A stretch of 64,000 nt of DNA, taken from positions 50,530,001-50,594,000 of the forward strand of contig CM060734.1 in the NCBI GenBank assembly GCA_030704615.1. Direction: 5' to 3'. Position numbers and translations under genes: made by a program. This stretch comes from Takakia lepidozioides. Lineage: Eukaryota; Plantae; Bryophyta. The first letter of the stretch is position 1, and each line of letters opens with the position of its first letter. Below, piece by piece: positions 1-59,464 of this stretch. The notes below the pieces were generated by a model that ran no database searches, was not told where the DNA came from, and worked only from the letters and a program-made list of their open reading frames with translations.

Positions 1-504
1 ACATGGATGGATGAGCTCATCCAATGGATGGATCCATTCATGTATATGTCTTCAAAATGACACGTATACTAGTAAAGTCATATAAATGTCTTTAAAATGC
101 CATGTGTGTAGTGATGTGTAGTCATTATATATGAGTCATGAATCAATCTGCAGTCAAATAGTCATAAGTTTACATGCCATGTCATGTTGTGGATGAACTC
201 GTCCAATGGATGAATACATTCGTGTATTTGCCTTCAAAATGACACATGTAGCGATGTAGTCGTATAATTAGAGCTGTGAAACCATCTCCAGTCATGGAGT
301 CATAACATTCCATGAAACGTCGTCCATGTGTAGTCAAACATATCACACTAGTCATATAAACCATCCATGTCATTGTGGTCAACGATGTTTGACCAAATCT
401 TCCTAACTTTCCGGAATCATGTAGTGATATCATGCGTCATGTAGTGATAAAACTATGACTGCAACACATTTCAGCGCTCTGTAGTCATCGCCCCTAGTGC
501 AGTT

Positions 505-2190
505 TTATGACTCCGCCAAAGCCGTAGTCCTAAAAACGCTCATCTCTTGTAGTGCCTCTTTGCCCTTTTCCAGAGCTGTCAGGCTTGCACACGCATTGCA
601 AACGCACACAAATGTGATGTGGTCGGGCTTCACCCCTTCCCCCATCATTTGCTCATAGGTCTCCAAAGCCTCCACCCCACGTCCCTGCTGTGCATACCTT
701 GCAATCATCGTGCTCCACGACACCACATCTCGTTCAGCCATATTGTTGAAAACTGCCTTTGAATCCTTAATGCACTTACATACATGTTGACCAGGGCAGT
801 GTTCAGAATGACATCTGGTACAATTCCAGCTTTCACGATGTCATCATGGACCTCTTTCCCCTTTTCCAGGGCTCCCAGGCTTGCACACGCATTGCAAACA
901 CAAACGAACGTGATGTGCAACATTTGCTCATAGGTCTCCAAAGCATTCCTACCACACCCATGCTTGGTAAATCCTGCCAACATTATATTCCACGTGATCA
1001 AAGATGGTCGAGGCATTATGCTAAACACTTGGTGAGCATCCATGATGCTCCCACACTTAACATACATGTTGACAAGGGTGTTGAGGAGAAAAACACTTTG
1101 CGTGAATCCACTTTGGATAATCTGAGTGTGCACCTGCTTTCCAGCTTCCAGACCTTTCATCTTGATACACTTAAGCAAGAGACAGACAAATGTATCTGAA
1201 TCTGCTAAAATACCTCCTACATTGGGCATACATGTCCACGAGGGTATTCAGAATGACATCTGGTACAATTCCAGTTTTGGCGATACAACTATGCCCCTCT
1301 TAGCCCTTTTCCAGGGCTGCCAGGCTTGCACATGCATTGCAAATGCACACAAACGTGATGAGGTTGGGCTTCACCCCTTCCCCCATCATTTGATCATAGG
1401 TCTCCAAATCCACCATCCCATGTCCCTGCAATGCATACCCTACAAGCATCGCGTGCCACGACACCACATCTCGTTCAACCATAGTGTTGAAAACTCCCTT
1501 TGCATCCTCAATGCACCCACATTTGGCATACATGTCCACCAGGGCAGTGTTCAGAATGACATCTGTTACAATTCCAGCTTTTGCGATGCAACCATGCACC
1601 TCTTAGCCCTTTTCCAGGGCTGCTAGGCTTGCACATGCATTGCAAATGCACACAAACGTGATGGGGTTGGGCTTCACCCCTTCCCCCATCATTTGATCAT
1701 AGGTCTGGAGGAGTTTTGGTCCCTGGATCTAAATAGCAACAACACACGGGGAGTAATGCTGGCTGATGAGATGGGGTTGGGAAAGACAATTTCATGCACC
1801 TCTTTGCCCTTTTCCAGGGCTTCCAGGCTTGCAAACGCACAGACCTGATGTGGTCGGGCTTCACCCCTTCCACCATCATTTGCTCACACGTCTCCAAAGC
1901 CTCCATCCCGCGCCCCTGCTGTGCATACCCTGCAAGCATCGCATTCCACGACACCACATTTCATTCAACCATATTGTTGAACACTGCCTTCGCATCCTCG
2001 ATGCTCCAACATTTGGCATACATGTCCACGAGGGAATTGTTCAGAATGACATCGGGTACAATTCCAGCTCTGACAATGTCGCCGTGGGCCTCTTTGCCCT
2101 TTTCCAGAGCTGCCAGGCTTGCACACGCATTGCAAACACACACAAACGTGATGTGGTTGGGCTCACCCCTCACCCATCATTTGCTCATAG
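505..2190 (-). pseudogene. Disrupted PLS-class PPR gene (tandem P-L-S repeats, several frameshifts and stops)
   Basis: Minus-strand ORF fragments repeat VVSWxxMLAGYAQQG / PDHITFVCVCNACASLxALEKGK / LNTALVDMYAKCG motifs in different frames. Confidence 0.9.
1707..1792 (+). other. Inserted fragment of a SNF2-family helicase gene (Walker A region)
   Basis: Plus strand reads LEEFWSLDLNSNNTRGVMLADEMGLGKTI and interrupts the PPR repeat sequence. Confidence 0.75.
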
Positions 2191-3619
2191 GTCTGCGTCA
2201 TTAACTCATGTGTAAGCCGAGCCCGCATATGTACTACCAATGTGTCAATACTGATGCTTCTACCCACATGGGACAGGCCCAAAGCACCACCACAACTAAA
2301 CTTGACTAGCCTACATCAACATAAGCATTTATCAACAAACTATCCACACCATACCCCCCCTCATTTGGATCAATATAAATCCCTAGAAACTTGTGTCTCT
2401 GCTCTGCACAAAAGCCAGATCGTCACCCTTCACTCTCACAAAACTACATACAAAGAATGTCGGATTGCTTCCACGAGCAATTTCACACCCCTGACAACCT
2501 CTACCACACAGCCTCTATCTACATACCAAACATTCTAACGTTGTACCACCCATGTGCATCCACCCTCTGCCAAGCAGTCTAAATTGGTCTCACCAAAGGA
2601 CCCATAATTACAATCTACCACTCTTGGCTGTCTGAGCATCCTCATGGACATGAATTTACGTCTGCTGTGTTTGGCCACCTTCTGTAAAAGACACTATCGA
2701 GTTTTCCAATACTTAATGGCTAGAAGAAGGTGGCCAATATTGATCGTGGTAAATTCTGGATCACTGGGCAATTGATTTGGTCTCATTGAAGCCGGGAAAG
2801 CCACGGGACATTTGCGTTGTGTCAGGCCTGTAGTCTCCCAAACTACTCTCCAGTCAAAAACCAATACCAGCTGGCACAACTTCCCCAACACAGCCAGGGC
2901 GTCCAAGATTATCAACCACAACACCCACACCCCACTCAAACGCACACACTGCCAATCCGTTCATACACCCTGAAACCCTTACTAAAAGCCCTCGAAACAC
3001 ACCATATATCTACTTGGACGCATTTGCTCTTACCAATGTGCTCTGGACATAAATTTGAAATGGCTCGCCCATCATATCCAACTATCTGATGTGTTGCGCT
3101 CCCCATATGTATGCCCTCTTAGACTCCTTCCTCCTCTGTTGCCCCCCACCTAAATGAACATAGGTAGACACTTCCACATATTGAGCAAACCATCCCTGCG
3201 CAAATTTCAAAACATATTGCGGTTTTCATGCTCTGCAAATCCCTCCCCACTGGTGGATACCTACACCCCATTAAATATCAACCCTCTCTGCACTGGGACA
3301 GTCATTTCAAATTTCTGAATCCTTCTGTGATCATCAGTTGGTTCTAACTAAAAGTTGGAGACAAGAAGTTACCTTCATATTGCAGATAACCATGTGATCA
3401 TAAGGAAATGGCAAGAAGGACAGGGACTCTTGTGTTCATGCTGCTCGTGTTCCTCATATGGAAGGCAAATGCCACAAGGACTACGTCCGAAGCTTCCATG
3501 ATTTCCCCTCATGGATGCAGCTATAAGCAAGGATACTCATACTTACTAGAATTGTTCCAGCAAACACCCCAACCCTACTATCACCACTCGTCCTATCGCT
3601 GACTTCTTTGCTAAAAAAG

Positions 3620-6136: not shown

Positions 6137-6221
6137 TGTCGTGCGCATACATATTGCTAGACAACTACATCGCTATCCAAACCACACCACACATATATGC
6201 ACAATAAAGTAGTCTACCACA
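6137..6221 (-). repeat. Terminal repeat block A1 (85 bp)
   Basis: Direct repeat of 6577-6661 with 3 substitutions. Confidence 0.95.
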
Positions 6222-6222
6222 A

Positions 6223-6574
6223 TGATAAACAAGCATAGAGACACTGTTGACACAAAACATATGAAATCCATCGCTATTACTCTTTATAATAGAAGTCGAG
6301 CCAGGGGCACCCCAAGCTATGGGGACTCCACCCCACAACAACCTACACTCCCATCATGAGTACACTCAGATCTAAACGCATGCAGGAGCTCGGTCGCGCA
6401 GGCTCAACTCGAGAGAGATGAGCTGCGCGACTGCCGCTCTCGTGAAAGATAAGACGGACCAGGTGTCAAACTAAACTTGACACCTGATTTAACACTTGAC
6501 CTAAATCCAAGTGTTAAATACAAATAACTAGTTTTATGCTAGCTGTTTTCACACTGTGCTTATTTAACTTGACA
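6223..6574 (-). repeat. LTR block B1 (352 bp)
   Basis: Direct repeat of 11129-11479; about 2 substitutions and one 1-bp indel seen. Confidence 0.95.
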
Positions 6575-6576
6575 GC

Positions 6577-6661
6577 TGTCGTGCGCATACATATCGCTAC
6601 ACAACTACATCGCTGTCCAAACCACACCACACATATATGCACAATAAAGTAGTCTACCACA
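6577..6661 (-). repeat. Repeat block A2, directly downstream of the polypurine tract in element orientation
   Basis: Minus strand: AGGGGGGcgat-TGTGGTAG...CACGACA-gc-TGTCAAG. Confidence 0.95.
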
Positions 6662-6920
6662 ATCGCCCCCCTAGCTGGTGGATAGGTCCCTCTACCTCCA
6701 GATAGCTACAAGACGTAATAGCCATAGCCGTACTAAGTCCTGTATCACTGTCCCTATCGTACTCAAACTCTATAGATCAAGAGGCCGGGTGCAAGAGTAG
6801 CCCCATCGTTAGTCGCCGTCTGGCAATCTGTGAACTTGAGCCAGGACTTCGTGTATTCAAGGTCTCCTGTAGAAGGGCCTTGCGTGGCTTGTTAGCCTCC
6901 CATGGTTGTATCCACTCCCA

Positions 6921-8168
6921 CTATCCAATGCATTGTGGACATAACCAATCCCCATTTGGAACCATCTCAAGAGGTGGAGTCAAGCACCCCATATGCCAAC
7001 CTCTAGAGCATCGATCACACACCAGCATGGTGGCTGCCCCTTTAGCAGACCCACACAACATGCACCTCAAACCTGCAGATACCACTGCCAGGTTTGGGTC
7101 AATCCTGCCATCGACATTTGGAAGGTGACATGGCGCACAATTACGCACATGGTCCTTCCAAGTTATGCCATCCCGACCCTCCAAGACCAAGACGCCTGAG
7201 GGCAAGACCTCTCGAACCCTCAAAATAACACGTCCTGCAGTCACATCCAGGGTCGTAGGAGCAGTCTGCTGCAGATAGACATAGTCACCAGGGTTGAATC
7301 TCCGAACCCCAGGACGATAGCCCCCACCACGTATGGTAGCATACCTCAACGTATCACGGTGTTGTGCAATGGCAAGGTTCTCGAAAGCCATGGGCATGAC
7401 TCTCTTGAACAACTCTGCACGCTGCTCACATGCACGGGCCCACACGTCCGGATCATCAAGGTTAAGAACTGTAGCAGCTTCTCTGCGAATGGATGTAGGC
7501 AAATCCGGCTCTCGGCCAAAGAGAAGAAAGTATGGTGAGAAGGAGGCAAGTGATGCTTGCTTGCTGAACCTGTAGCCCATGGCTAACCAGGGTAACTGAA
7601 GGTCCCAATCTCCTAGGTGTCCCTTCTGCAAGCCATACTTGCGCAAACCCCTCTTTACTGTCTGAACAACTCTCTCTGCCAAGCCATCGGCTTCAGGATG
7701 ATCCCGAGAAGTGGTGCGGTGGTCTATCAAGGCCTTGTCACATAAAGCCTGAAACTCCCCCAAGAACTCTCTCCCTTGGTCCGTGAGTACCTCAGCTGGA
7801 GCACCGAATCGGCTAAGCACACAATCCAGGAATGCATACGCAGCTCCCTCACTAGCCTTATCAGGCAATGGAACCAATTCAATCCACTTGGAGAAGTGCT
7901 CCACCATCACCAACACGTACTTGTTGTGGCGCATGGTCAGTGGCAACGGCCCTGCGAAGTCAAGACTCAACCTGTAGCCCAATCCCATGATCGGAAGAGG
8001 GTGCAATTGTGGAGTAGGGGCGTTGAATGAAGCACGCACCCTGTCACATACCATGCACCTAGCCACAAATTGTTGCACCTCTGTGTGCATACCACGCCAC
8101 CAATACTGCCCCTGCAGTAGACTATGAGTGCGTCGCACCCCAAAAATGCCCCAACTCCTCATGGGCAT
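6921..8168 (-). CDS. DDE integrase with C-terminal PHD finger (frameshifted from RT-RH near 8145)
   Basis: YWWRGM..CMVC zinc motif, SLDFAGPLP, VLTDQGREF, DGLAERVV; ends CMLC...CDRC..GWHMGCLTPPL..VPNGDWLCPQC (C4HC3). Confidence 0.92.
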   Translation of the reverse strand: MPMRSWGIFGVRRTHSLLQGQYWWRGMHTEVQQFVARCMVCDRVRASFNAPTPQLHPLPIMGLGYRLSLDFAGPLPLTMRHNKYVLVMVEHFSKWIELVPLPDKASEGAAYAFLDCVLSRFGAPAEVLTDQGREFLGEFQALCDKALIDHRTTSRDHPEADGLAERVVQTVKRGLRKYGLQKGHLGDWDLQLPWLAMGYRFSKQASLASFSPYFLLFGREPDLPTSIRREAATVLNLDDPDVWARACEQRAELFKRVMPMAFENLAIAQHRDTLRYATIRGGGYRPGVRRFNPGDYVYLQQTAPTTLDVTAGRVILRVREVLPSGVLVLEGRDGITWKDHVRNCAPCHLPNVDGRIDPNLAVVSAGLRCMLCGSAKGAATMLVCDRCSRGWHMGCLTPPLEMVPNGDWLCPQCIG

Positions 8169-10365
8169 GCCGCACTAACCGTGCCCGCTGTGTTGGGTGA
8201 GGCACAATCCTCACTCGACCATCCTCCCACACTCGGAGCAGGTGTGTCCCCTCCCACCTGAACGTCTTGGCTCGTTGTAGGATCCGATCCCTCTCCTTGG
8301 CAGTCATAGTGGCTGTCGTGTCTCCACTGCGGAGGTAGTCCAACACAACTGAATCCTCATGTATATCTTTGGCGCCACCCTGCTCATTGCTGGCCTCAGG
8401 GTCCTCAGACACTTGATCTACAGTCATCCCTGTTGTAGGTCCAACCTGGCCTTCCGCTGCCAAGATACACAGAAATGCAGATGCATGCCATCCGGGCACC
8501 ATCTCCTCGTCCGTCTCACCATGCCACCGAGCTCCAGTGTCATCCTGCTGGCTCGTGCATGGATTGCGACTCAACCCATCTGCATTTCGATTGACCAAAC
8601 CCGGTCGATGCACCACCTGAAAGTCATACTCTTGAAGGATGAGTGCCCACCGTGCAAGCTTCCCCGTAAGCTTGTCTGACTCCATCAACCACTTGAGTGG
8701 TTGGTGATCCGTGACAAGGGTGAAGAGATTGCCGTATAGATAGCACCTGAAGTGTGCCACGGCCCACACTGCAGCTAAGCATTCTCCCTCATATGAGCTA
8801 TACTTAAACTCTGCAGCATTGTTCGAGCGGCTAGCATAAGCCACTACGAACTCTCTTCCCTCATCATCCACCTGTGTGAGCACCGCTCCAAGCCCCAGCA
8901 TGCTCCAATCTGTATGCAGCTGAAAAGGACGCCCCCTGATAGGTCGTCTCAAGATGGGCGCCGAGGTCAACCTCGCCTTGAGCTCTTGAAAAGCTTGTTC
9001 TTGCTCATCTTCCCACTGCCACTCCTGGTCCACCTTGGTCAGCTTGGTTAGAGCCTTTGCAATGGCACTAAATCCCTTAACAAACCGTCTGTAATAGTTT
9101 GCTAACCCCATGAAAGCTCGAACTCGGCTCACATCCGTGGGGCGTGGAACCTGTGCAATGGACTCTACCTTAGTCTGCTGTACCCCCAATCCTCCAGGAT
9201 ATATCATGTGACCCAGATACTCAATCTGGTTGTGGAAAAACTTGCACTTGCCCGGATGTAACTTCAATCCGTGCGTCCTCAAGCGCTCAAATACCCCCTG
9301 AAGGTGTCTCTCATGCTCCTCCACCGTAGCACTAAAGATGATGATGTCATCTATGTAGCACCGAGCAAACTCCACCCCTGCTAGAATCCTGTCCATGACT
9401 CTTTGAAACTCAGCGGGAGCGTTTTTAAGCCCAAATGGTAAGAACCGCCACTGGTATAGGCAATCCTTCCCGTGCTCATTGATCCCCCAGAATGCCGTCT
9501 TTTGCTTATCCGCCTCCTTGATCGGCAACTGGTGATATCCGGATCGTAAATCCAACGTGCTAAAGACCTTGGAATGCCCAATGGCATCAAAGATCTCCTC
9601 TGGTGTTGGCATGGCATACCTATCGGACTTGGTCTGACGATTTACAGGCCGGTAATCACCACACATACGTCTCTCCGTCCAATTGCCATAGACATCCTTC
9701 TTAGCTGGCATCACTGTGGCTGAAGCATACTCTCCACCAGAGAGCTCCACCAAACCTGCCTCCCAGAGATCTTGAGTCCTCATCTGAATCAAAGACCTCT
9801 CCATGTCACTGTACCTATAGGGTCTCCGAAAGATTGGCGTGTCAGTGGCCAACTCAATACGGATCTCTTGACCCTTCAGTGCTCCCAAGTCCTTCAAACT
9901 GAAGGCAAAGCAATTCCTATAAGCCCTCAGGAACCGCCGTATACGTCGTCTCTCTCCTCCGGTGACAATGGGTCCAATGTCAGGCTCCCAATTGTCCTCC
10001 GTAACTGCAACCTTAAGTCCAGTGGGCTTAGAGGTAGAGGACGCGTCCCGTGGTTGCTATGCTGCAACCTCTTGAGCAGTACCCCCTTCCTGCTCAGTCA
10101 ATGACAAGGCCTCATCCTGCCCCATCATCTCATCATTGAGAACCTCCTCATCCCGAGAAGAATCCCCAACCTCATCCATCACAGCTGCCTTCGCTGCCAA
10201 CTCCCTCTGAACCTCGAGCACCTCCCACATGTGCCATGGATGTCTACACCTCGTGGTCCTCACCGGCTCGCCCCACTCGCTGCCTGTACCGTCTCGGTAG
10301 GCAGAGAGACCGTCAAGGAAGTGCACTCCGCACTCTACGTTGCTCAGCCATAGCCAAGCTGACAA
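8122..10365 (-). CDS. Gypsy reverse transcriptase and RNase H (in-frame TAG at 10057-10059 in the upstream linker)
   Basis: RMCGDYR, LDLRSGYHQ, PFGLKNAP, YIDDIII, HTDWS, TDHQPL, NADGLSR. Confidence 0.95.
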
Positions 10366-11030
10366 TCCAGGTCAAGCAATTGAGATCCATTGCTTGCCCC
10401 AACACCTGACGACGTGATGCCTCAGAAAGAGAAGGCACCGCCGTGGTCCCAGTGGAAAACCCCATAGCCCGCTCTCGCTCGTCGGCATTAGGCTCCACTA
10501 ACTGCTGCAACTGAGCATCCCACAGGAGGCCAGGTCCACCATCCCGAAAAGCATGGGATCCTGGGAAGCTGAGCAGTGTAGGTAATGCTGTTCGTGGTTG
10601 ACCCACCCTGTTGACCACTGCCAAAGGCGAACGGTCATCGTGTCTCACACGTTGAGACTGCCTTCCTGTGTCCAAAATGTTATCCACGGTGAGGTGTGCT
10701 GGCCGCTGCACCCCATCAAATGCACGCTTGAGCAGTGCGGGTGGCATAAAGTTAGTCCACCATAGTCGTGGACGATGAGCCCGTGACCCCACTGCAGCTG
10801 CATCCAGCAACACTGCTGACCCAAGCCACGACCGGACTTGATGCACACTGGCCATCACCCTGGCCCGAGAATCACCCATCAGTGGTACATTCTCCAAGAT
10901 GTATGCTGGAGATACGGCTTGATGAAGCTGCAAGCAGCGCAAAATCCGCACCATCTCCCAAAACAGACCCGTCCTCGAGTCTCGCAATCCATTGCCATGC
11001 CCGGCTGATGAATGCCCTTGGCAGGGCCAG
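10313..11030 (-). CDS. DNMT3-like C5-cytosine methyltransferase catalytic domain (N-terminal motif I missing)
   Basis: WPCQG (motif IV), YILENV (VI), AHRPRLWWTN (VIII), ERERAMGF (IX), RRQVLGQAM (X). Confidence 0.88.
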
Positions 11031-11112
11031 ATGGACTCCCGCCCCAAGATATATATTATAATAATGCTAAAACAAACATTGTATCTAGCTTAGCACCAGC
11101 ACACTAGATAAC

Positions 11113-11128
11113 GCTCATCTCTCTCGAG
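11113..11128 (-). promoter_or_regulatory. Self-complementary primer binding site
   Basis: CTCGAGAGAGATGAGC abuts block B2 and is complementary to 6408-6423 and 11314-11329 inside B. Confidence 0.8.
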
Positions 11129-11479
11129 TGATAAACAAGCATAGAGACACTGTTGACACAAAACATATGAAATCCATCGCTATCACTCTTTATAATAGAA
11201 GTCGAGCCAGGGGCACCCCAAGCTATGGGGACTCCACCCCACAACAACCTACACTCCCATCATGAGTACACTCAGATCTAAACGCATGCAGGAGCTCGGT
11301 CGCGCAGGCTCAACTCGAGAGAGATGAGTTGCGCGACTGCCGCTCTCGTGAAGATAAGACGGACCAGGTGTCAAACTAAACTTGACACCTGATTTAACAC
11401 TTGACCTAAATCCAAGTGTTAAATACAAATAACTAGTTTTATGCTAGCTGTTTTCACACTGTGCTTATTTAACTTGACA
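11129..11479 (-). repeat. LTR block B2 (5' end of the element)
   Basis: Near-identical to 6223-6574. Confidence 0.95.
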
Positions 11480-11749
11480 CATGTGTCATTGGCCCATGTG
11501 TGAAGAATTGAAATCTAAGCCAAATGCAATCTCATATGTATCCAAGTGCTTCTCCCATGTAGAGGCCCAAGTGCGACCTCGAGTGTCCAATGTCATCTAA
11601 GTCCAAGTGCCCCTATGCATCCTGAGACCTTGCAGTTTGGGAGATCTCCACATCATTGTTCCAACAAAGCCCACTTTGCTTTTTTGCAATCTCCCTTGTC
11701 GAGGCTTCATATATTGATATATCCACTTTGCTATTTTTTGCGAGTTTCC

Positions 11750-11955
11750 AACGACCAAAGTACTTGAAATTCCAAATCTGGGCCAATCATTGCTCCAGAA
11801 AAGCCCACTTTGCTAGCGAATTTTCTAGCGACCCAAAGTACTTGAAATTCCAAATCTCCTACTTAAAGGGCCAATCATTGCTCTACAAGAGCTCACCATG
11901 CTATTTTTCAAAAACAATTCCAGCGACCCAAAGCACTTGAAATTCCACATCTCCC
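11750..11955. repeat. Three imperfect copies of gacccaaagtacttgaaattccaaatct
   Basis: Copies near 11752, 11830 and 11925. Confidence 0.7.
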
Positions 11956-12784
11956 ACACTGCGGGTCCGAAAATATGAGACCAAGCCGGTGCACCGCTCC
12001 TCATCAAGGGCTTTCCAACGTGGCACCAAGCTCTATAGGGGACTCATTCAATTCCTAGCTACTAAGTACAATGGCCTTTACTCCAGGCTGCCAACCCTTC
12101 ATCCCCAATCCTGCCGCCATTCTCCCACCGCTAGAACTCTATATTATACATCTTACGCCAAATGAACATTAGAATACAAACCGATCTCCCTGGCTATCCT
12201 AACACCATCTCACCCCTTGAAGTCGTCTGGCTTAACAGTCCATCTCTCCCTGAATTTGAGGAACTTCACCCCTGCCAAAAAACGCTCATACTTGCTTACT
12301 TTAAAATCAGACACATCACGACACTTACCCAACTCACCACAGCCTTTGGCTATAGACTACTCTCACCCCGAGAGTTCACTCTCAAATACTCCAGAGCCAC
12401 TGTCAAAACATGTCAATACATGTCCCTGCTTCGAACCCTTTTCTGCCACAAGACTCCCTCATGTTCTCTTGAGTGCGACCTACCATGCAAACTCTTTCCC
12501 CATAACAAACTAGACCTTCTTCCTCAATATAAAACACACCCAGCCCCATCTATTCTAAGTATGATGGCAGCACATAAAGCTCACCCTGACCCTTCAAATT
12601 CTAACACCCCTCCCATGTCGCCTTGCCACTCTATGTCCCCCTCCCAAATGACCAATTCAAACTTGACCATCCCTCTGGCTCAACCACCCCCCACACCCCC
12701 ATCCAAACCTCCTCTACCCCGCTTACCCCGACCAGCCCGCCCTCGCCGGCCTCAACCCCGAGATATATTAACCCAGACAATCCG

Positions 12785-12932
12785 GAAGCCTTCATTATCG
12801 AAGCTATTCTAGGGATCAGAACTCAGATCACCACCGACAAATTTGGCGCCACATGCCTAGACACTTTCTACTTATGCAAATGGGTTGGGTACCCATCGGA
12901 AGATAATACCTAGCAAGCAGAGGACGACCTAT
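12785..12932 (+). pseudogene. Chromodomain within the LINE ORF (TAG at the conserved W)
   Basis: FIIEAILGIR...FYLCKWVGYPSEDNT*QAEDDL. Confidence 0.75.
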
Positions 12933-13380
12933 TTGGGTCCCATGAGGACTGTGACTCGGTCCACAACCTTAACATCCTCACCGCATTTCTTAAGTCCACT
13001 AATACCAACTACCTAGCCCATACCCACCAACAACACACTTCCCAAACCCAATCGATGGACGCCCGGTACGTCCATAACCCCCTAGTTGCCCCCGAGGTAC
13101 ATGTCTGCATCACAGAATGCAATCCTGACAAAGACATTCTACACACCTCCCCTATAATACGCTCCGGCAAGCACCTGTCCAAGTTATATGCCTCACATGG
13201 CTGCTTCATTGGTCTCATTCCTAATGACAGACTCACCTGGCTATGGCACAGATTCTCAAATTCAAACCCGCCACCTAGCCTACTCACGCCCGCTAAACAA
13301 GACTTCGCTACTAAAGTCTGCTGGCTCATGGATCGCTACTTGACTGATACCCCCTCCAAAAACCTCGCTCCCTCCTCAAG

Positions 13381-13700
13381 CTAAGACAAGCCCAATCCCA
13401 TATTACCCTTCCACCGGACATACTAGCACTCCTTATAAACTCCTTCCAAATTACACACTCTTATAACTCAAGCCTACTTACATGCCCTATGGTGCTTTCG
13501 TCATACTCAAGCCCACACCCCCGAGCCTGCATATTTGGAGCCTTAGGCTCTGCCTATCAATATACGTGGACGGGCCGCGGCTTTGCACAACCGTCCCAAG
13601 GATCCCACATGCATGACGTTTTACAATGGGCTCGCCACGCAGTCCAAACATCCCCCTCTACCGCCACCATCCTCCTTCTGACTCACCAACAATTGCCAAA
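13381..13700 (+). pseudogene. PCIF1/Dam-like N6-adenine methyltransferase-like domain within the LINE ORF
   Basis: ITLPPDILALLINSFQITHSYNSSLLTCP..SYSSPHPRACIFGALGSAY..TWTGRGFAQP follows the LP..F..FASPL..Y.S...FG..G....NPP spacing. Confidence 0.5.
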
Positions 13701-14109
13701 TGGCCCGCACCCTCTCTCCCAGCTACCCCATGAGGTTACGCCTCTAGTCGCTATCGACCCTGGCATCCAATACTCTCGCACCCCGCCCCTCCCCAAGTAC
13801 CTTAAACAGCAAGAACCCACCTTAACCAGGCCTTAACCCTCATACTGCTTGTCAATCGCACGACCACAACTACCCCCATACCCGCCGACTTCCCATCTCG
13901 CATCACTGCCTTCTAACAAACACACATAGCATGAAGGTCACCACATTCCCTATTCCCCCTCCCTAACGTCCGTTACCCCCCGCCTTTACCCTAAAATAAA
14001 TTCATCCAAAACATGGTCTCGAATGCTCACCCATCCACCCATCCCCCCTACCACACCTATCCACACCGAACCTCCGCTATTCCGGACGGATCTCCTTCTC
14101 AAATACCCG

Positions 14110-14510
14110 TCTGCCCACTCCCACTACACCGACGGATCCCTCATTGCTGGTCCTAGGGCTGGGTATGGTTTCTATCACACCGCTACCAACCAAGGCATTT
14201 CCCTACGTCTCCCTAGCCCGGCCACCATCCTTCGTGCCGAGTTCATGGCCATACATGTTGCCCTCACCCAGCTCTCATCATTCCCCCCACCCCATTATAT
14301 TTTTACTGATAGTCTCACATCACTCTTTCTCATCCGCAATCACCGCCATCGACCCTCTTCTCACCACTACCACTCTGACCGGAACCTAATCATAGTTCAA
14401 ATTGCTATCTCTATAAACCAGCCCATCCACTTTCTTAAAGTTCGCTCCCACACTGGCATCACTGGCAACGAAATGGCTAACTTCTTTGCCCAACAAGGTG
14501 CCACCCAATC
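14110..14510 (+). CDS. RNase H domain of the LINE
   Basis: YTDGS, RAEFMAI, IFTDS, KVRSHTGITGNEMAN. Confidence 0.9.
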
Positions 14511-15599
14511 CGAGGTGGACCCTACGTCGGATCCCATCCATGTGGCCCATACCTACCCCTTTTGGTTCATCCACCTCGTTCCAGGCCCCACGGAGCCTCG
14601 CCCTATCCGCAATCTCTCTACCACCCTTACTCGAGTAGGCAGCAAACAAGCCTCCTCCTCTGCAAGCCACACTAAGCTACATGTCCAGAAATGGACACAA
14701 TCTGATGTGCTACACCATAAGCTGTCTTATCACTTCTGGCACACTTTAATCTCGCCACCGATGCCCAAATAAAACAGAGCCTCAAATTCAGATATGCACA
14801 ATACATGGGCCACCAATGTAAACATATCTTTTGGCCTCACCTCTTCCTTACCCAAATTGTCCACTCTATGCTTGCACCCACTTTGCCCGTGACACTTGGC
14901 CCCACCTACTCAGCCAATGCACACATCCCATCATCCATGGCCTCCGTGTCACTCGACATAACCATGTTGTTTGGCACATCCATAAGCTACTCCTACGTCA
15001 ACCTGCAACACGTTGGTTTTCATTCATCAATGCGAGGACATATCAAGGTAGGCCCCCTGACCACACTGTACCCTTATGGCTTCTGCCCTGTTCATGCCGG
15101 CCACCCTCACCCTGCACATGTCCTACCAGACTCTGTCATGACATACTTCTAGTCCACATATTGCCTATGAATGCGCCTCCGCCAAGCATCCCATCCCCAA
15201 ACCTCACCATACACTTTATTGAATTCACATATTGTAATGATCGCTACCCCAGCTCCACCACATTGGAAAAACGTCAAAAATACGCTCCGTTCGTCCTATC
15301 CGTTTGCCATCCTGGCTGGTCCACATGGGGTCCACATGCCCCCTCACGATCATTACTACCGGCACCAGAGGCGGCATCCACAATGCTAGTATCTATGCCC
15401 TTCACACTAACTTCAAAATTCCTATCTCCCCTATACACAAATGCTTCAAGGCTATCCACCTAACTGTGATTCCCTCCCTCACTGCTATTATTACCAACAA
15501 AAGGCATCTTGAATCCCATATCTCTTCAGGCTCTTGAAACTCCGTATACCCTAGGGGTACCCCCTGGGATACCTTTCCGAGCACCAGTCCCCTGAGTTA

Positions 15600-15712
15600 C
15601 GGGGTGCCCTCCGGGCGCCCAATAGTTTTTATATAGGGCCCACCCCCGAAAGGGGGCAGTAGCCGCAAGGCGAAGTGGCTCTTAGTTACGCCGGCCTCGG
15701 CCGGAGTCATCT
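15600..15712 (+). ncRNA. Structured RNA element in the LINE 3' UTR
   Basis: ccccGAAAgggg, cAGTAgccGCAAggcGAAg and ccggcCTCGgccgg hairpins; diverged copy at 32160-32232. Confidence 0.55.
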
Positions 15713-15779
15713 CTCTATAAACTACTTATAATGTTGATAATCACCATCATAATATGTGATTATCTGATATGTGGCTCTT

Positions 15780-29282: not shown

Positions 29283-31011
29283 CTAACTACTCTTGCCTTT
29301 GACTCCTCCATTTTGACCGGATTCCCAAGAGACGTCATTTCGAGGGACTATCATCCCATATCCACCATGGTGTCGCTTGTATAGGATATTGATTTCTCCT
29401 ACAAACACGTATATTCCCAATGTTAAAAGCCATAGCTGAGCAGAGAGAGATGTGGAAGCTGCAATATAAACAAACACAAATAACGAGACACCTCAATGAG
29501 TGCATAAGTTTATGAGCAAACTTACCACTCTCAGCATTGCGGAAAGCATAAAAATCATGTCCCACGTTCACAAGTTGCTCCAGAGCCTCAAATGCTGTCA
29601 TAGGGTGCATCTCAAAGTACTTGGTGCGTACCACCTACAAGAAGCCCAGCCAGACACCTTTATCAAAAGCACTTACAGAGTGTTTCTGCGACCTCCATAT
29701 GCAACAATTGGCTCCCTTTCTAGCAGTAACATTAAGAAGTTGAGGTTCATCATGCCCCAACTCATATTCAGCACCTACACATTTTCATGTCTTGCATGTA
29801 TGTTCTTCATTAATGGTTTCCCCCTCATGTTGGATTTTCAAGCTTTAAACTTATGGGGCAGATTAAGCCCACAATGAGGGCCATCTACAAGAGTAGAAAG
29901 ACATTACTAAGTACCTCATCGGGCAAGTCATCAGCCTGCTTTTCGAGCAAGGGGGCAAGATCCACAACTTCATCTGACAGCAGCTCTCCAACTCGAGGCT
30001 GGTTGCGCATCTTCGATGTACGACCATGGCCTCCGTCCTTCTCCTTGATCTTCCGCAGCTTTCTTGAAATTAGATCAGACACCCTGTCGATGCTTGCGTA
30101 CATACTGCCTGCCTCCTCTTCTGCTCGTACAACTCCATGCTTCTTCGTGAACAGTGTAACCTGCAAAAGCGACACTGACATTTGGAGTTGACAGCAAAAC
30201 CAGCACACATTTAAAGACAAAAGCAAACAAAGCTACTCTTAAGAGGGGAGCAATGACAAGTAACAAGAGCAAGCGCCCATGCAGCTGTTTTGCTTCAAGT
30301 AACAACGCAGCTGAAGGTTTCAAGATGGCAACCAAATGCAGGTACATCACCTTCTCTAGGCCAGAAATGAGAATCTGCCATCAAAAACAAGTCACACAAA
30401 AACCTCATATTCCAGTTATGCATACGACCAACCGCACCTCGCACCTTTGAAGCTTTTGCCCGCGCACACCCTCCCCACCGCGCACTGACATCCTCACATC
30501 AACTTCCCTGACAAGGTTCCCGTGATTGTGGACGGCATTGCCTACTTTGTCCTCCACGTAGCTCTTAATTGCATCTGTCAGCTGTCATACCCATTCCCAT
30601 TTGACGACAACACATTAAACGCAATCTACCACTGAGGCTGCAGGGCATTTCACGTGATAAAGCAAGCACACAAAGAGATACACTCACCTCCATATGCTTG
30701 CCTTGAACAATCAAGCGCACAGAGGCTAATGCCCCACCCCATCCCCCGCTCCATGCAGCGCATGTTGTCATCCTACCCCGCTGCACGGTTCTATTGGAGA
30801 TCATCAGCAGACATGCATCAAAGCAGCTTTGTCCTTGAAAACTGGAGTTCAGGCTGGCCACGGAGTAAGGCGTGACTCCATACTGTTCCATTCTCAAGAA
30901 AGTAGATGAAAGAGCCACTCTGCCACCACCGCTGGGCAGCGCCCTGCTGCTCTTGCAACTACTGCATGTCACCCCCGCTGCATGACCCCCTGCCCACACA
31001 ACCACCGCCAT
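29283..31011 (-). CDS. PSRP1: Plastid ribosome hibernation factor (HPF/S30AE family), about 5 exons
   Basis: Transit peptide, then [11 protein letters not shown] / [11 protein letters not shown] / [21 protein letters not shown] / [18 protein letters not shown] / INILYKR..GGYG; GT-AG introns. Confidence 0.92.
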
Positions 31012-32159
31012 ATCTCGCCCTCACCTGCCTTCCAAAAAAAAGGAAAACAACTCGGATCTGCACAGCAGGAGCGTCACGGCTGTAATAAAAGGAATGGCAG
31101 CACCCAGACCGTTGCTGAGTTTTACTCTAGTGCAACTGGACATCAACGCAAAGATTTCCCTCTGCACATGCAGCCCTGATGATCGCAACCCAATGTGTAG
31201 CTACTCTCGACAGCTTCTCGTCTGCATCATCCAGCGTCCCCAAGCACGCATTCAGTCCAAGACGGGGAGAGGATATGCAGTGCCACGTTGGAATGGAGAT
31301 TGGAGATAGATGCAGATGCGCTCTGCAGGGTTTTTGATTCCACGCGTCTCCATCTCTGCAATACACTTGGTGACTGGTCGTCACTCACACCCTGTCTGCT
31401 ACCCCACCAGTTTTGCTGCATTAAACTCTCTTGTTTTTTTACCCTACTTGTTTTTCGGGCCTCCTGCAAGGCTTGTTTGGTCATCTCCTTCCTCCAGAGC
31501 TTGTTTCATGTGTCTACAGCTGTAGAACATTCACTGTGTAAATCCCGGTTGTGTTTATGCACCATCACACTCACGGGGCAGACTCAGAGGACAAAGGAGT
31601 CAGCGAAAGTTCTACCCCAGTGGCTCATTTTGAGCACAACATGTAAGTGGCAACTATTTGAGTATGTTTAGGAGAAGAAAGTATGCGGCGTGTGGGCCCT
31701 TCTCCCTCAGAGCAACAGCTCGCTCAGATGATCTGTGATCTCTTACTAAGCAAATAGTACATATATGTTTGAACAAGGTTGGTATGTACATATTATCATT
31801 CACAATCCATCAATATAACAGCAGCCCAGAGTTGCTAGTCATCATCATCATTGTTCTTGAAATCTCCCGTCCTTGTTGTGTGGCCCCACTGGATCTATGG
31901 ACTTCAAATCGATATTGCGAACTAAACAGGTCTACGATGACCACCGCTGTCTTGCACATCTGTATTGCCGACCGTGGATAACTTAATTTGTCTTCACTAT
32001 GAAACGTGACAGGTCTGCTAACCTTGGAGCTCTTCAGGAGAGCACCCAAAGTTGGTTACCAAAGATTTACAAATTGGAACTGGAAACCCAGTTTAAAATC
32101 GCTAAAATATTGCAGGACCGAGCTGGAAGACTTCTAGGAGGAGGCCACCTTTCATAGAA

Positions 32160-32278
32160 CCCACCTCCCAAAGGGGCAGTAGCCGCAAGGTGAAGGGCTC
32201 TTAGTTAGGCATGCTTGGGTCGGAGTCTTCTCTGGGGAGGAGGCAAGGTGAAGTAGCTCTCAGACGTTACGCAGGCTT
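32160..32278 (+). repeat. Diverged short copies of the LINE 3' structured element
   Basis: ggggcagtagccgcaaggtgaagggctcttagtta...ggagtc.tctct matches 15651-15715; a partial second unit follows. Confidence 0.75.
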
Positions 32279-53678: not shown

Positions 53679-53903
53679 TCAACTGGTGGCACAAAATAAC
53701 GTTGAGAAACAGATGTTGGAATGCAGCATGAAGAGCAATCGATTCGAGTCCATGGGCAGGCTACAGACCTTCGTCTGCACTGAAGATTAAAGAACTCTTG
53801 GCTCGACGAAAAAATTTCATCCATTTCCCTTTGGAAGGCTGAAGAGTTCAGAGTTCAGAGCCTCGATTGTTTTGTGTAGTCCTTGTCATTTATGCATACA
53901 TGC
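53679..53903 (+). repeat. About 220-bp direct repeat of 59535-59752
   Basis: tcaactggtggcacaaaataac...tcatttatgcatacatg present at both sites. Confidence 0.9.
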
Positions 53904-53909
53904 ATATAC

Positions 53910-56900
53910 CCAAAAGTTACCTAGGAATCGTTTCAGGGAGCCCTCCAGAGAAGCTCGAGCTCGCTAATAATATGTTCCAATCATGTGGCCATCGATCTGA
54001 GCTCTGAGTGTTAAGCATCGCAAAGTGTTACGCATCGGATGCTAGGCAGAGGCACGGTGGGCCGACATGATGTGTACCTTTGATGGGGGCACCTCCTTCG
54101 CAGGCTGCACGTCAGCGTTTTTTTTGTCCGTGGATAATTTTTGCCAAAAGGCTCCCCTTTTCGATGGGCGAAGTACCGTCCTACCTCACCTTCTTTTCAG
54201 TTTTTCGGAGGGTGAACAAGAGGTTGTCGCCACGGTATGACTGCCACCGTGGACCTGTTAAAACATGCCACCTGCCATACAAGCACCCCCCGAAAAAAGG
54301 AGCTGGCACCTCTAGAAAGGTCCCGGGTAGAATAGACAGGTGGTAGACTGCTTCCATCTCCTTGGAAGGTTTCTAGGTAGAGCGATTGTGGAGAGTTGGG
54401 CTCTGAGAGTTGAGAGACAGCCGACGCCGAGGAGGGGAAGCGATCTGTCATGGAAGCAGAAGAGAAGCACGTGCAGGGTTGACAGTCCAGAGAAGAGTAG
54501 CTCCAGTCTGAACAGATTGGCGCCTACAGGTGCTCCTTGGTGTCATGACGGAGGACTTAGTGGACAGAAGTGAATGTTGGCATTCCTCAGGCAATCTCTT
54601 ATGTACACAAGTTCTTGCAGCACCTCGTGATCTCTCTTATCCTCCTGTCGCTACAGGTAAATTATCCTGACTCTGATCTTCTCTGCATTACTCAAATTGA
54701 AACCCTGTATATTCATGTTAAAGGATGTGAAGTCTTACCAGATATTTGCACTCAGGGACATCACTAATTTTTCAAATTTTGGTTTGCAGGACTTTGGCTC
54801 ACCTCAAGTCCTTGGAATACTTGTAAAGGTGGACATCAGATACCAGGAGGGCTGAGACACTGCTGCACCATGTCGATAGCATGCGTACTGCATGACATGC
54901 GATTGAAGAATAACTCAAATATTTACATACGTGTATAGTGAAATTGTCTAAAAGTAACATGACTCCCACATAGAGTACAGAGGGAGGGAGGTCACACGAC
55001 GGAGCTAGTCCACCTGTGCAGAACCTCTTCAAATTATTAATGACGTATTTAAGGCCTTATTGGCTGTAGCTACTTAGGGTAGCTGCATGACTCCCACATA
55101 GCCAGAGGGTAGAGAGGACATACGAACTGAGCAGCTACACAGTACACCTGTGCATCCCTACTATTCATGCATCCTCTCTAAGTTATTGTCTGTGGCCTAG
55201 CCTTACTGTAGGTACATATCTTACTGCACGAAGTGATCAGATCCCATGTCTTAGAACGAAAAACTTCTCCAACCATATTAACCTGACCTGCCGCATGAGG
55301 CCTAGGCTTACTCTATCCCACTGGCGGCTCACTCATTGGCGCAGGTGGAAGGTCGCCAAGCACAGCGGGGAGCATCGACGGTTCTTCCCTGGAAGCAGTC
55401 GCAGACAACTGATCTACATCTCGTCCGTCCTCCGTGAAGAAGTTCTCGTTCGTGAAGCTGAACTTGCATATATAACAGATTGCTAGATGACAAGTTGGTG
55501 GTAGCTTCAAGTTAACATGGACAGTGGCATAGAGTAGCCTCTGCCCCATGCGGCCGGTTAGGTTAATGCGGCATGGACAAGTTTGCCGTTCTAAGACCTG
55601 GGCCCTGATCACTTCCTGCAGTATGCACTATGTACATACAATAATGCTACGCCATCGACAATAACTTGAAGAGGATGCATGCACAGTAGTAATGCACAGG
55701 TGTAATGTGTAGCTGCTGAGTTGGTATGTCCTCTCTCCCTCTGTCTATGCAGGGAGTCATGTAACTACCCTTGGGCAGTACGCACATTAAAATAATAATA
55801 TTTGTTTGCAAATGGAAGAGGTCCATAGTCCATAGTGCTTTCCAGCATCCTTGTCTAACCTCCCCTACTGAGTCCAAGTTTTTCACCTCTGTATATTACC
55901 TCACATGTCAGTACTAGTGATCCTTCTTCATCTTCACTACAGATTTGTACTTCCACAAAACATTCTTGTTGAGATACTCTTGCAGAACTGGCGCTTCCTC
56001 GCCAGTACTTGGTTTTCCAGTGGTGTTGCATGCAGCAATTAGAATACACGAAGGATAGCAGCTTGCAGTCAGATTTCACATGCATCTCATTCTGGGAGGA
56101 CTCTCCGTCTGCACGTCATGCCTGGGCTTATAATGTTTATAGAATATTGTGATTGTCCACGGGTAGCAGGATTTCTACCTAGAGAGAGAGAGAAAGAGTA
56201 CCTCATATACGATTAACCTACACCCAGGTGCATCGCTTCTGCGCATGAATCCTCTAATTCAAACTATTGATGGCATGTAAAGGCTTATCGCATGTAGCTA
56301 ACGGCAAAGAGTCAAGCCCCAGGACTCACTTCTCCATTCCTGACCTGGGACCTGCGGCCATTTGAGACCCTTTACTTAAATCTGTGCCACTAGACCGTCG
56401 CTCCTTGGCGCAGATGCCTGGTGGACACGCACACCTTTCCCCGCATTTTGAGGCTGGGAAGTATCTTTTCTCCTTCGTATAAGTATCTCCTCCCTCCTTG
56501 GTGCAGCTGGCCAATGAGCGGCTAGGACCGCAATTCCCTGTCGCAATGAAAATGCTGAGCTTGCTGCAACAAGATCGAGCAACAGTGATCGACTTTGTCA
56601 ACAGGCTATATGTATGGAGATATGGAACATCACAGTTCGTTGGAGTTGACATAAGACTAGCCGAAGCTTTTCCATTTTCCCATCGATATAAGTATTTGGA
56701 TTCACTGTGGAGAGACGACCCTATATCGAGGATTACGGATGGAATACTCTGGTGTGCTGAAGTGGATGCCTAGCAGTTGTTCGATGAGGTTTGTATAGCA
56801 AGCAGAGCTCGCAGATTATATTTAATCAGGAGATAATAAGATGATCATGAGCTTGAATGCAGCTGCATGTCACATGCATAGCAAGATGAGGAATCACATG

Positions 56901-59464
56901 CATAATAGTAAAGCTAGAATTCGAAAGCCATGTAAGCATAATAACCCGAAGCAATTATTAATTTGGTAGTACCTGATCATAGATCCACTTGTGATGTCTA
57001 TGGAGTGCGGATTCGGCCTATTGCACCTGCTCAAAGATGTGTTAGTGGTGCCCAACATGTAATTCGTGCTGATTACCCTAAGCTGAGCTAAGGTTGATCT
57101 CGAAGCCTTTTCCCCCGGGAACAATAGGTCATACTCCTCTATCCCTCGCTCACCAATCGTAGGATGAAACACTTACATGCACGTTGTACCGCACCCGCAG
57201 TGGCAGCAGCAGGATCCATGATCACATGACATTGCGCTTCTTAAGAGGTTTGAGTGTCAGGAGAAAAAGTCTCGAAAAGCAAGAACGTAGCTAGCACCAG
57301 ACATTCAGCATTAGAGCAGTGAGAGATGAGTCTCAGATGAGTTAGCTTGCTCGCTTTTATAGTAGCTAGCCTCCGCGCATCGCGCACACCACGATCTTCG
57401 AAGCTTCCTCGTTTTTGCTTGCAGCTTCTACTGGAAGGTGAGAAGGCTGGTAAGATATTCTAGACTCATTTCCCTCAGTACAGCATTTGCTAAGCTTTCC
57501 TTCTAATCCAAAGCACTCGGATCAGCAGCCAATGCAGAATATCATTACTGCATCATACAACTCTTACGGATTCGAGCACAAGTTCCCCTCAGACCCTAAA
57601 ACCAGTCGCTTCAACTGCACCAATTTGCAAAATATTAAAAATAGTTGCAGTAAAGCGACGGAGATATGAGCGAGGCTCTAGTCGGTGCATACTGATCCGT
57701 AGCTGTGCATACTATGAATAGATTGACAACAAATGTGTGTTGTGTTTGTTGTTGCTGTCAAGGTCACACTCAGATTTAGAATCGCAGTGTCTCTTGTGAT
57801 CTCTGCAACCGCCCATCACATAACTAGACTGTGCGGTGGGCCATGGACCCACGCGAGTGATTGGGAGTCTCACTGATGTAGTTTTCAGCGAAAAACTATG
57901 ACTGTCAAACTTGCCTCCATCAAATGTTGCATCAAATTGCTGCGAGGTGGCCCCTCCTGTTAGAGTCGTTCAAGGAGCTTTCTTTTGCTTCTTCATCAGC
58001 TCACTTCGGTGCACGTTCCGTCAAGGAATGGGTGTACCGCCACCTCAGCAGCCCTACTTGGCTGCTGAGGACTTGTTCCGCTTGTTTTGTGTCTACTCCC
58101 ACTCACATGTCTGTGGCCTGGTGGTAAAGCCGCTCTTGTATGGACCTATGGGATTGGGGCTGGGGCTCTGCTCCTGTGATAATGCCTCAATGGCTCAGAA
58201 AGGGGGTGTAGTTTCCAATGTTGGGCGGTTATTTAAATTTCTCTCTAATACCCTTAGCTATCCGGTTATATATACATGTGACCCGCTGAGGTGAAAAAAT
58301 GAAATAACCAGTCCAGTTAGGAACCTGCAGAGGTCAGGCATTCAAATATCGGAGCAAAGAACCTTTTAAAGAACTGCCCAATACCCGCAGTTACCGCAGG
58401 TTATATCTAGCCATAAAAAATTTAGTAACCGCAACTACAAGTTAATTTTGAAGCAACCGGAACGGCCGGTTATGAAAAAAATCAAATAACAGCCCCACAC
58501 TGTGGGGCTGGTGTTTTTTTTTTTTTTTTCCAAAACAGGTGGCGGAGACCCTGGTGTTTCTTGGAAAACCAAAAACGAAAAGAGCAAAGAAAGCAAAAGT
58601 GTAAGTTAGCCCCAAAAAACCCCAAACAAAAAGATTGTAAACATCAATAAATATTGGTGTTAAATATTCTAACCTAATTTGGTGAACATCCTAATATGAA
58701 AATGTGAAAGTTCATACCAGGGCCTCTGTCCCCTGTTAAAAAGCAAAGAACAAAAAAAGTGAGAGGATCAACTTCACTGCGTTTTTTTTCATTTTTCAAA
58801 AGTAGCACAAGCTGCCACCTGTCTATTCTACCCAGCACCCCAGGAAAAAAGGAGCTGGCACCTCTAGAAAGGTCGCTATATGACAGGTGGCATGTTTTAA
58901 CAGGTCCACGGTGGCCGACAACCTCTTGTTCACCCTCTGTTTTGGCGAAAAACTGAAAGAAAAGGCCTTCATTTTCGTTCAGTTAGTGAATACTCAGCCC
59001 AACGAAAAGGGGAGCCTTTTGGCAAAAATTCACGAAACAAACGGTGACTTGCAGTCCAAAGTACAAATTTTTCCAGACTTTCTTGAAAGACTAATGTGTG
59101 GGTGCCATCATGCCCACTGTCATTGCCCCACAAACTCCAAATATGTTTAGAATTCCCCAAATTGCCTGGAAGATTTTAGACCCCAAGGCCAACGGCTAGG
59201 GACGGGCAGTATATTCTGGGCCACGTTGCACCCCCTCACCACATCACCCCCTCCCTTTCAGCCTGGCCCTGGCCTTCCCCATCAAAGGTCCATCATGTAG
59301 GGCCGGGTGGGCCTCCCCACCGTGCCTCTGCTCAGGATGCGTAACACTTAAGCGATGCTTAACACTCAGAGCTCAGATCGATGGCCACATGATTGGAACA
59401 TATTATTAGCGAGCTCGAGCTTCTCTGGAGGGGCTCCCTGAAACGATTCCTAGGTAACTTTTGG
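53910..59464. mobile_element. 5.5-kb element with long TIRs and ATAC(C) TSD, no recognisable transposase
   Basis: CCAAAAGTTACCTAGG... nearly perfect inverted match for about 110 bp and patchy to about 430 bp; ATAC at 53906-53909 and 59465-59468. Confidence 0.85.
58215..58502. mobile_element. Nested MITE-like inverted-repeat element
   Basis: caatgttgggcggttattt ... aaataacagccccacactg; internal cggtta/taaccg motifs; no TSD found. Confidence 0.4.

Follow-up and report, generated by a model that had tools for sequence, protein, structure and literature searches.

A decayed land-plant LINE copy, likely of Dualen/RandI type, with a chromodomain and a predicted PCIF1-like fold that lacks the catalytic motif

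Introduction

The described elements that most resemble the locus reported here are the Dualen/RandI retrotransposons of green algae and cryptophytes. Their published parts are a protease, APE, reverse transcriptase (RT), RNase H, CCHC knuckle and restriction-like endonuclease (RLE), with a SET domain in one cryptophyte element (PMC5029228). Dualen has been assigned to the RLE-to-APE transition among LINEs, and in Chlamydomonas one of its families is active (PMC9977147). RandI copies end in (ATT)n or (CTATTT)n tails, and Chlamydomonas also has SINEX elements with RandI tails (PMC3747384).

Several other retroelements carry methyltransferases (MTases). The MTases of DIRS elements have been called PCIF1-derived and likely inactive (PMC4738411), PCIF1/CAPAM being the cap-specific m6Am methyltransferase. 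Both DIRS and DAM-LTR/EpiLTR elements have an amino-methyltransferase within the retroelement, sometimes with a chromodomain; DAM-LTRs are reported to be absent from Streptophyta, and DIRS and LTR Dam domains expressed in E. coli showed no activity (10.64898/2026.05.21.726589). The available text of that source contains no match for PCIF1 or Dualen. SymbioLINE-Dnmt and KnitGypsy-Dnmt3 likewise carry MTases, which are cytosine enzymes, the SymbioLINE DNMT being a separate upstream ORF (PMC5890265). The element described below shares with DIRS and DAM-LTR/EpiLTR a predicted amino-methyltransferase domain; unlike DIRS (YR) and DAM-LTR/EpiLTR (LTR), it is a LINE, and its domain is unlike the cytosine enzymes of SymbioLINE-Dnmt and KnitGypsy-Dnmt3.

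Among the literature matches listed, none linked Dualen/RandI to a PCIF1-like domain, a chromodomain or land plants. The founding Dualen paper (Kojima and Fujiwara 2005), Repbase or supplements may already note the domain. The available portions of PMC8226300, PMC6338049, PMC5718144, 10.64898/2025.12.07.692804 and 10.64898/2026.10.22.757692 hold no such Dualen/PCIF1 link.

Results

A dead 3′ fragment of a multi-copy retrotransposon

We analyzed a stretch of 64,000 nucleotides of plant nuclear DNA, referred to as the window herein. PPR repeats and an S30AE/PSRP1-like gene mark it as such, and the type of PPR suggests that the host is a non-seed land plant. Three-frame translation and tblastn with intact relatives delineated a single broken ORF on the + strand, from ∼12135 to 15537, which is interrupted by five frameshifts (near 12750, 13357, 14745, 14850 and 15300) and three stops (at 12911, 13834 and 13927). 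From 5′ to 3′ we found a post-RT region, a chromodomain, a PCIF1-like domain, an RNase H, a CCHC knuckle, an RLE and a structured 3′ end (Table 1). An earlier note on this DNA had claimed the order chromodomain, methyltransferase-like segment, RNase H, knuckle and RLE, which Pfam, profiles and predicted folds bear out; the span that it gave, 12070..15540, located the element correctly but stopped short of its end at ∼15716.

Neither translation nor Pfam revealed an RT within 12074-15716. For comparison we used long RT-bearing relatives, namely 63 proteins of 1864-4776 aa obtained by a search with residues 1500-3308 of the relative P0035. A profile of the RT-to-MTase region from 55 of these proteins matched the frame of 12135-12750 with E 1.8e-4, the best of 288 control pieces reaching E 0.5. 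The RT motif lies 582-985 residues ahead of the MTase in 55 of 56 long relatives. Since the element begins only ∼430 codons before its MTase domain, the RT has been cut off, and the loss by 5′ truncation proposed in the earlier note agrees with a start downstream of the expected RT position. With five frameshifts, three stops and no RT, the copy in the window is a dead fragment. We did not accept a 7-bp repeat, CTCTATA (12031 and 15713), as a target-site duplication, since 12020-12045 resembles a neighboring repeat. Directly upstream of the 5′ edge, 11745-12045 is a high-depth repeat with three internal 40-nt copies.

Sibling copies were found in contigs from two runs of one sample, in which all 30 bins of the element were covered. 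Summed depth in run X1, which is not copy number, was 89-3040 over 12074-15635, compared with ∼30 for a near-identical record, and rose to 105,687 (again depth rather than copies) in the bin with 15636-15716. The element belongs to a multi-copy family. The siblings depart from the window copy at its breaks near 12748, 12911, 13357 and 14745 (the last in under half of the depth), and therefore the family likely had one open frame.

Table 1 Features of the element and its surroundings (window positions).
Feature	Positions	Strand	Remarks
5′-truncated, decayed non-LTR retrotransposon copy	12074..15716	+	5′ edge uncertain, ∼12045-12135
Post-RT region and Pro-rich linker	12135..12750	+	relatives' profile; frameshift near 12750
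Chromodomain	12791..12943	+	Pfam PF00385; stop (TAG) at 12911
PCIF1/CAPAM-like domain, predicted (helical-domain end and Rossmann core)	13150..13870	+	limits inferred from P0245 alignment
SAM-binding motif position	13459..13485	+	SYNSSLLTC; ERFASPLN in long relatives
Catalytic motif position	13585..13596	+	AQPS; NPEY in many long relatives, AHP in close clade
RNase H	14119..14502	+	Pfam E 2.6e-13; stop upstream at 13927
CCHC zinc knuckle	14858..14920	+	second Cys altered; frameshifts near 14745 and 14850
RHN and RLE, up to ORF stop	14954..15537	+	frameshift near 15300
Conserved RNA structure at the 3′ terminus, with a short (TC)n tail	15635..15716	+	shared with relative loci
Solo 3′ terminal unit	32154..32233	+	83% identical; no attached coding sequence
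Gypsy element	6223-11484	-	LTRs 6223-6579 and 11129-11484, 99% identical

The C-terminal half resembles Dualen/RandI

The RNase H retains its D-E-D-H residues (His at 14449) and has Asn at the last acidic position. Downstream, the RHN motif at 14954 precedes a PD..E-type RLE core at 15134-15235. Pfam had no match on the CCHC and RLE pieces, and a CCHC-RHN-RLE profile built from 17 relatives found Bombyx R2 as its best, weak PDB match (8IBW/8GH6, E 0.047). The close-clade RLE reads EFT at the D/E-x-K position (15218-15235; E134 invariant, F135 and T136 at least 90% conserved in 17 rows), an unusual variant of the RLE active site.

The order RNase H, CCHC, RLE downstream of the RT position is that of Dualen/RandI, as are the 3′ tails of short tandem repeats and, in long relatives, a protease (Josephin, OTU or Ulp1 in some of them), APE and RT. 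The N-terminal cysteine protease is missing from the window copy by truncation, and APE is absent from it as well. Unlike described Dualen/RandI elements, this one sits in a land plant, its copy in the window has neither APE nor RT, and its relatives include PCIF1-like, PHD and chromo modules that are not among the parts listed in the available text of PMC5029228. The earlier note had taken RNase H together with RLE to characterize Dualen/RandI. Both are present here, but the combination is not unique, since the non-LTR element Utopia of oomycetes has it too (PMC4640811). In Utopia, however, the RNase H lies upstream of the RT and has Arg in place of His (PMC4640811), whereas in our element it adjoins the CCHC-RLE part and has the His.

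Protein and metagenome searches yielded neither an RT nor an APE belonging to the close clade. Word-index protein searches with two read-through pieces yielded no longer relatives, which is weak evidence; a metagenome scan with P0164 gave no match; and a second scan turned up 50 loci, of which 47 were shorter than 3.4 kb, with no RT region seen among the 50. The assignment accordingly rests on architecture and the C-terminal half. On these grounds we infer that the element is likely a Dualen/RandI-like LINE, as the earlier note had proposed. A separate RLE-only lineage, which shares this half with Dualen and has lost APE or uses a different RT, would explain why no RT-bearing member of the close clade was found and why its branch is long and weakly placed in the tree. 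We regard such a lineage as unlikely, given that the region from post-RT to RLE is collinear with proteins having protease, APE, RT, MTase, RNase H and RLE, and given tandem-repeat tails like those of RandI (PMC3747384).

The methyltransferase-like segment is predicted to fold like PCIF1/CAPAM

The segment ahead of the RNase H, interrupted by the frameshift near 13357 and the stop at 13834, had been called PCIF1/Dam-like. On its own, 13348-13833 gave a weak Pfam match to PCIF1_WW (PF12237, E 0.24); a sequence search of the MTase piece alone against the PDB gave no PCIF1, only chance light-harvesting matches; and a PDB search with a 61-sequence profile was uninformative for the MTase, being swamped by RNase H. 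A profile of 38 close-clade sequences found only zebrafish CAPAM in the PDB (E 0.068), the match reaching upstream of the 13357 frameshift.

An AlphaFold model of the window piece (pLDDT 84.5) placed CAPAM at Foldseek ranks 1-6 (prob 0.99-1.00, E 0.01-0.03), with no match at E <= 0.001. When this model was compared with 48,161 chains, CAPAM was the sole chain with Z >= 8 (Z 10.1, rmsd 4.1, 145 aligned). The model of the close relative P0245 matched CAPAM with a Foldseek E of 1.9e-9, and in the chain comparison it reached Z 15.9 (216 aligned at rmsd 4.0), the runner-up having Z 8.8. Residues 175-410 of P0245 align with zebrafish CAPAM 422-659. That region of CAPAM comprises the MTase domain plus the last part of the helical domain; in CAPAM the helical domain helps bind RNA and cap (PMC8287941). 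Dam was not the best match: Z was 7.7 for T4 Dam and 7.0 for E. coli Dam, level with unrelated MTases, and Pfam Dam had no match on the window piece and a weak one in 1 of 52 relatives' protein scans (P0029, E 0.0017). The models thus predict a PCIF1/CAPAM-type MTase fold rather than Dam. A fold check set beforehand on 13381-13700 came out in favor of an MTase, with CAPAM as the top fold match. Of the two names given to the segment only PCIF1 stands, Dam being merely among generic Rossmann matches, and its extent is wider than 13381-13700, reaching ∼13150-13870 across the frameshift.

The likeness to PCIF1/CAPAM lies in the predicted Rossmann MTase fold. Unlike that enzyme, the element has no WW domain and a chromodomain precedes instead; most of the helical domain is missing, the match beginning at CAPAM residue 422; the NPPF motif gives way to AQPS in the window copy, to AHP in the close clade and to NPEY in many long relatives; and the domain is embedded in a retrotransposon polyprotein.

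The PCIF1-like module is widespread among Dualen-like proteins

A search with the MTase-RNase H piece against 1.84 billion representatives returned 753 matches at E <= 0.001, and PCIF1_WW was present in 20 of 26 matches chosen for Pfam, several far above the cut-off. For instance, P0035 (3308 aa) combines Josephin, RT, PCIF1_WW and RNase H, and P0115 combines Josephin, APE, RT and PCIF1_WW. Among the 63 long relatives, the MTase profile matched 59 and the RLE profile 55, while precomputed annotation placed APE in 35. APE and RLE occur together in 32 of the 63, all 32 of which carry the MTase; the close clade contributes none of these. Since 59 of 63 long Dualen-like proteins carry the domain, it is no special capture by the window element. 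A PHD pattern lies within 600 residues upstream in 20 of the 59 MTase-bearing proteins. Named hosts were Chlorella desiccata, Haematococcus and Cymbomonas, most long relatives being metagenome proteins, and Pfam has already annotated PF12237 on many of them. The Dualen-like P0225 (4319 aa) has PCIF1_WW (NPEY) and then a C5 DNA methylase before the RNase H; by analogy, it is the LINE counterpart of the dual-methyltransferase EpiLTRs.

Loss of the catalytic motif is a trait of the close clade

The AQPS that the earlier note reported at the NPPF-type position is present and aligns with the NPEY of long relatives. We compared this position in the 59 MTase-bearing long relatives and in 46 close relatives (at least 31.5% identity over the domain, leaving out four near-duplicates and P0110, which lies elsewhere in the tree). 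The catalytic Asn is found in 30 of the 59 (26 as NPxY, mostly NPEY) and is missing from the other 29, which are scattered over several tree branches. No close relative has it (0/46); His takes its place in 37/46, the next residue is Pro in 35/46, and several relatives read AHPP. The family in the window genome has Gln at the catalytic position and Asn where relatives carry F/Y. Likewise, the motif-I acid is D/E in 51 of the 59 long relatives, compared with Ser in 40 of the 46 close ones. In a FastTree tree of 101 rows (midpoint-rooted, no outgroup, 16 near-duplicates left out), nine close-clade rows formed one branch with support 1.0. Because none of the 46 close relatives keeps Asn, motif loss is a trait of the clade and not the decay of this copy. 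"Inactive or decayed", the earlier note's wording for the domain, is therefore probably right as to inactivity and wrong as to decay of this copy alone.

Whether a domain without the motif could still act depends on how the motif works. Its form is [DNSH]PP[YFW], in which the final aromatic is needed to stack the target base (PMC4738411). Since His is an allowed first residue, weak activity of the close-clade domain is possible, and an HPP/QP variant could methylate adenine in element RNA or cDNA as part of a true reader plus writer, all the more as His and Pro are frequent in the close clade and the predicted fold is intact. We nevertheless consider continued catalysis quite unlikely. The final aromatic, mostly missing in the close clade, and the motif-I acid have been lost together; this genome's own family has Gln, with Asn at the relatives' F/Y position; and Asn has also gone from 29 of the 59 long relatives, in several parts of the tree. 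This branch's domain, judged by its residues, likely no longer methylates.

The opposite view is that the domain is a vestige with no job, a mere spacer in the polyprotein. Across three relatives, identity amounts to 43-47% in the MTase, 40-52% in RNase H and 30-41% in the linker that separates the two. The MTase domain thus appears about as well conserved as RNase H in all three relatives compared, and the linker values, little below those of the MTase, weaken the argument for constraint; the catalytic residues, too, are lost. Many close relatives are fragments of copies that are probably decayed. However, conservation reaches at least 90% at Y39, C46, F63, W74, G78 and W94 among 38 sequences, the fold prediction is confident, and variation among siblings is biased to third positions. 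In 20-22 contigs per run from one sample, 18 sites over 13440-13620 vary when counted at >=25%, and third codon positions account for 10 of these sites (p 0.043). In most siblings L13474 is replaced by Pro and A13525 by Asp, both nearer PCIF1, and across AQPS no variant reached 25% in about 20 contigs per run. A vestige is accordingly very unlikely in our estimation.

Since the clade lost the motif and the domain stays conserved, a reader plus a pseudo-enzyme is likely for this branch, rather than a reader plus a writer. "Reader-plus-writer", the earlier note's term for the element, fails for this family, in which motif loss is common to the whole close clade, and fits the NPEY relatives better. 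The simplest reading of the alignments would be an ancestral enzyme that was inactivated repeatedly and still kept.

A canonical chromodomain occurs in some subfamilies

With the TAG at 12911 read as X, Pfam Chromo matched at E 6.6e-6 (26.4 bits, cut-off 25.1). The aromatic residues F12791, W12881 and Y12890, which we take to be cage aromatics by analogy with HP1, are present. The canonical pattern is also found in the relative P0006, whose chromodomain matches those of SUV39H1, CDYL2 and HP1 at E 1e-4 to 2e-3. Both Pfam Chromo and the cage pattern are absent from the sister subfamilies P0087, P0092, P0083, P0126 and P0019, so histone reading is not clade-wide; the same hairpin insert is nonetheless common to these subfamilies. 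The model of P0245 matched the Chp1 chromodomain weakly (rank 41, prob 0.89, E 0.096). Precomputed Chromo occurs in 0/63 long relatives. A chromo-like Y-x-V-x-W barrel, picked by pattern in 52 of them, resembles the close-clade chromodomain weakly (hhalign E 0.012, control 0.68) and as its counterpart is a lead only.

A structured 3′ end is shared with related loci and solo units

The 3′ end combines a closing stem, a GAAA hairpin, an AGUA..GAA junction whose stem varies in length, a further hairpin and a tandem-repeat tail. The window has this structure after the ORF, as do L004, L005, L016, L019, L031 and L039, and looser forms occur in L009, L038 and L046. The closing stem is altered on both sides, AGGGCC/GGCTCT versus GTGTCC/GGACAC. 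The structure pattern had seven matches against two in 20 shuffles, a biased count as the pattern was derived from the same sequences. Folding was better than that of shuffles for L004 and L038 (z -3.7 and -3.9) and no better for the window's 85-nt unit (z -1.17). No Rfam family was found for this end. Tails are (TCTA)n or (TTC)n in the loci, (ATT)n in L038 and a short (TC)n in the window copy. By analogy with the tails shared by SINEX and RandI, these features are compatible with RT recognition of the 3′ structure and with SINE-like or heavily truncated copies.

Depth over the 85-nt unit (15632-15716; 32154-32233) exceeds that over the coding region by a factor of tens to hundreds, and in other copies the unit has a T-rich 5′ flank and a (CT)n tail. 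It also occurs in two runs guessed to be RNA. The deep copies are possibly a SINE or extreme truncations. On eukaryotic contigs of 20-65 kb, a BING4/WD40 gene has as its neighbor a short remnant whose 3′ structure resembles that of the window copy (L046/L048/L049, 10001-10400).

Proposed mechanism and meaning

Our preferred reading, to which we give a probability of roughly 0.6, is that the locus is a broken 3′ part, lacking the RT, of a LINE that is multi-copy and likely of the Dualen/RandI group, with a chromodomain and a motif-less domain of predicted PCIF1 fold that likely serves as a non-catalytic RNA-binding or scaffold module. An intact element would encode one polyprotein that grips its own RNA via the structured 3′ end. 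The RLE, plus APE if this branch kept it, would nick DNA; the RNA would be copied by target-primed reverse transcription and then cleared by RNase H. Copying that stops early could leave 5′-truncated copies and many solo 3′ units. By analogy with chromoviruses and HP1, the chromodomain may tether the complex to methyl-lysine histone H3, which would bias insertion to silent chromatin. The PCIF1-like module may be ancestral in Dualen, with NPEY forms probably active N6-adenine methyltransferases, and would have been kept in this branch as a pseudo-enzyme.

A broader proposal, which we put forward tentatively and hold to be possible rather than probable, is that PHD, chromo and PCIF1-type parts form an undescribed clade-wide Dualen module. 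NPEY forms would mark their own capped RNA (m6Am) or cDNA at reader-chosen chromatin, and the land-plant branch would have a pseudo-enzyme, with some subfamilies keeping a canonical chromodomain. If true, NPEY Dualen elements would be retrotransposons with a captured mRNA-cap writer. The NPEY and Asn-less forms offer a natural experiment on writer versus pseudo-enzyme. Since one Dualen family is active in Chlamydomonas, a retroelement-borne adenine methyltransferase would be testable in a live element. The range of Dualen would also extend to land plants. The main interest lies in the clade-wide module that the dead window copy exposes.

Neighborhood of the element

The nearest feature is a Gypsy element whose LTR ends at 11484, ∼590 bp away, close to the 600 bp previously given for the spacing to a DNMT-PHD Gypsy. 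Beyond position we found no link between the two, and a functional one was rejected, the Gypsy LTRs being nearly identical and the LINE copy far more decayed. The Gypsy has RT, RNase H, integrase and PHD; abutting its LTR is an incomplete C5 DNA methylase, which matches Pfam positions 70-156 of 324. No gag or protease ORF was seen in it, so it seems to have lost internal sequence. One of its LTRs lies between the copies of an 87-bp direct repeat (6137-6223, 6577-6663). Farther away, 185-nt direct repeats and nested inverted arms (53907-54346 with 58812-59467) at 53721-59755 suggest another mobile element. Lastly, the window holds PPR repeats (705-1244), a broken PPR array on the - strand (500-2200) and an intron-split S30AE/PSRP1-like gene near 29885-30229.
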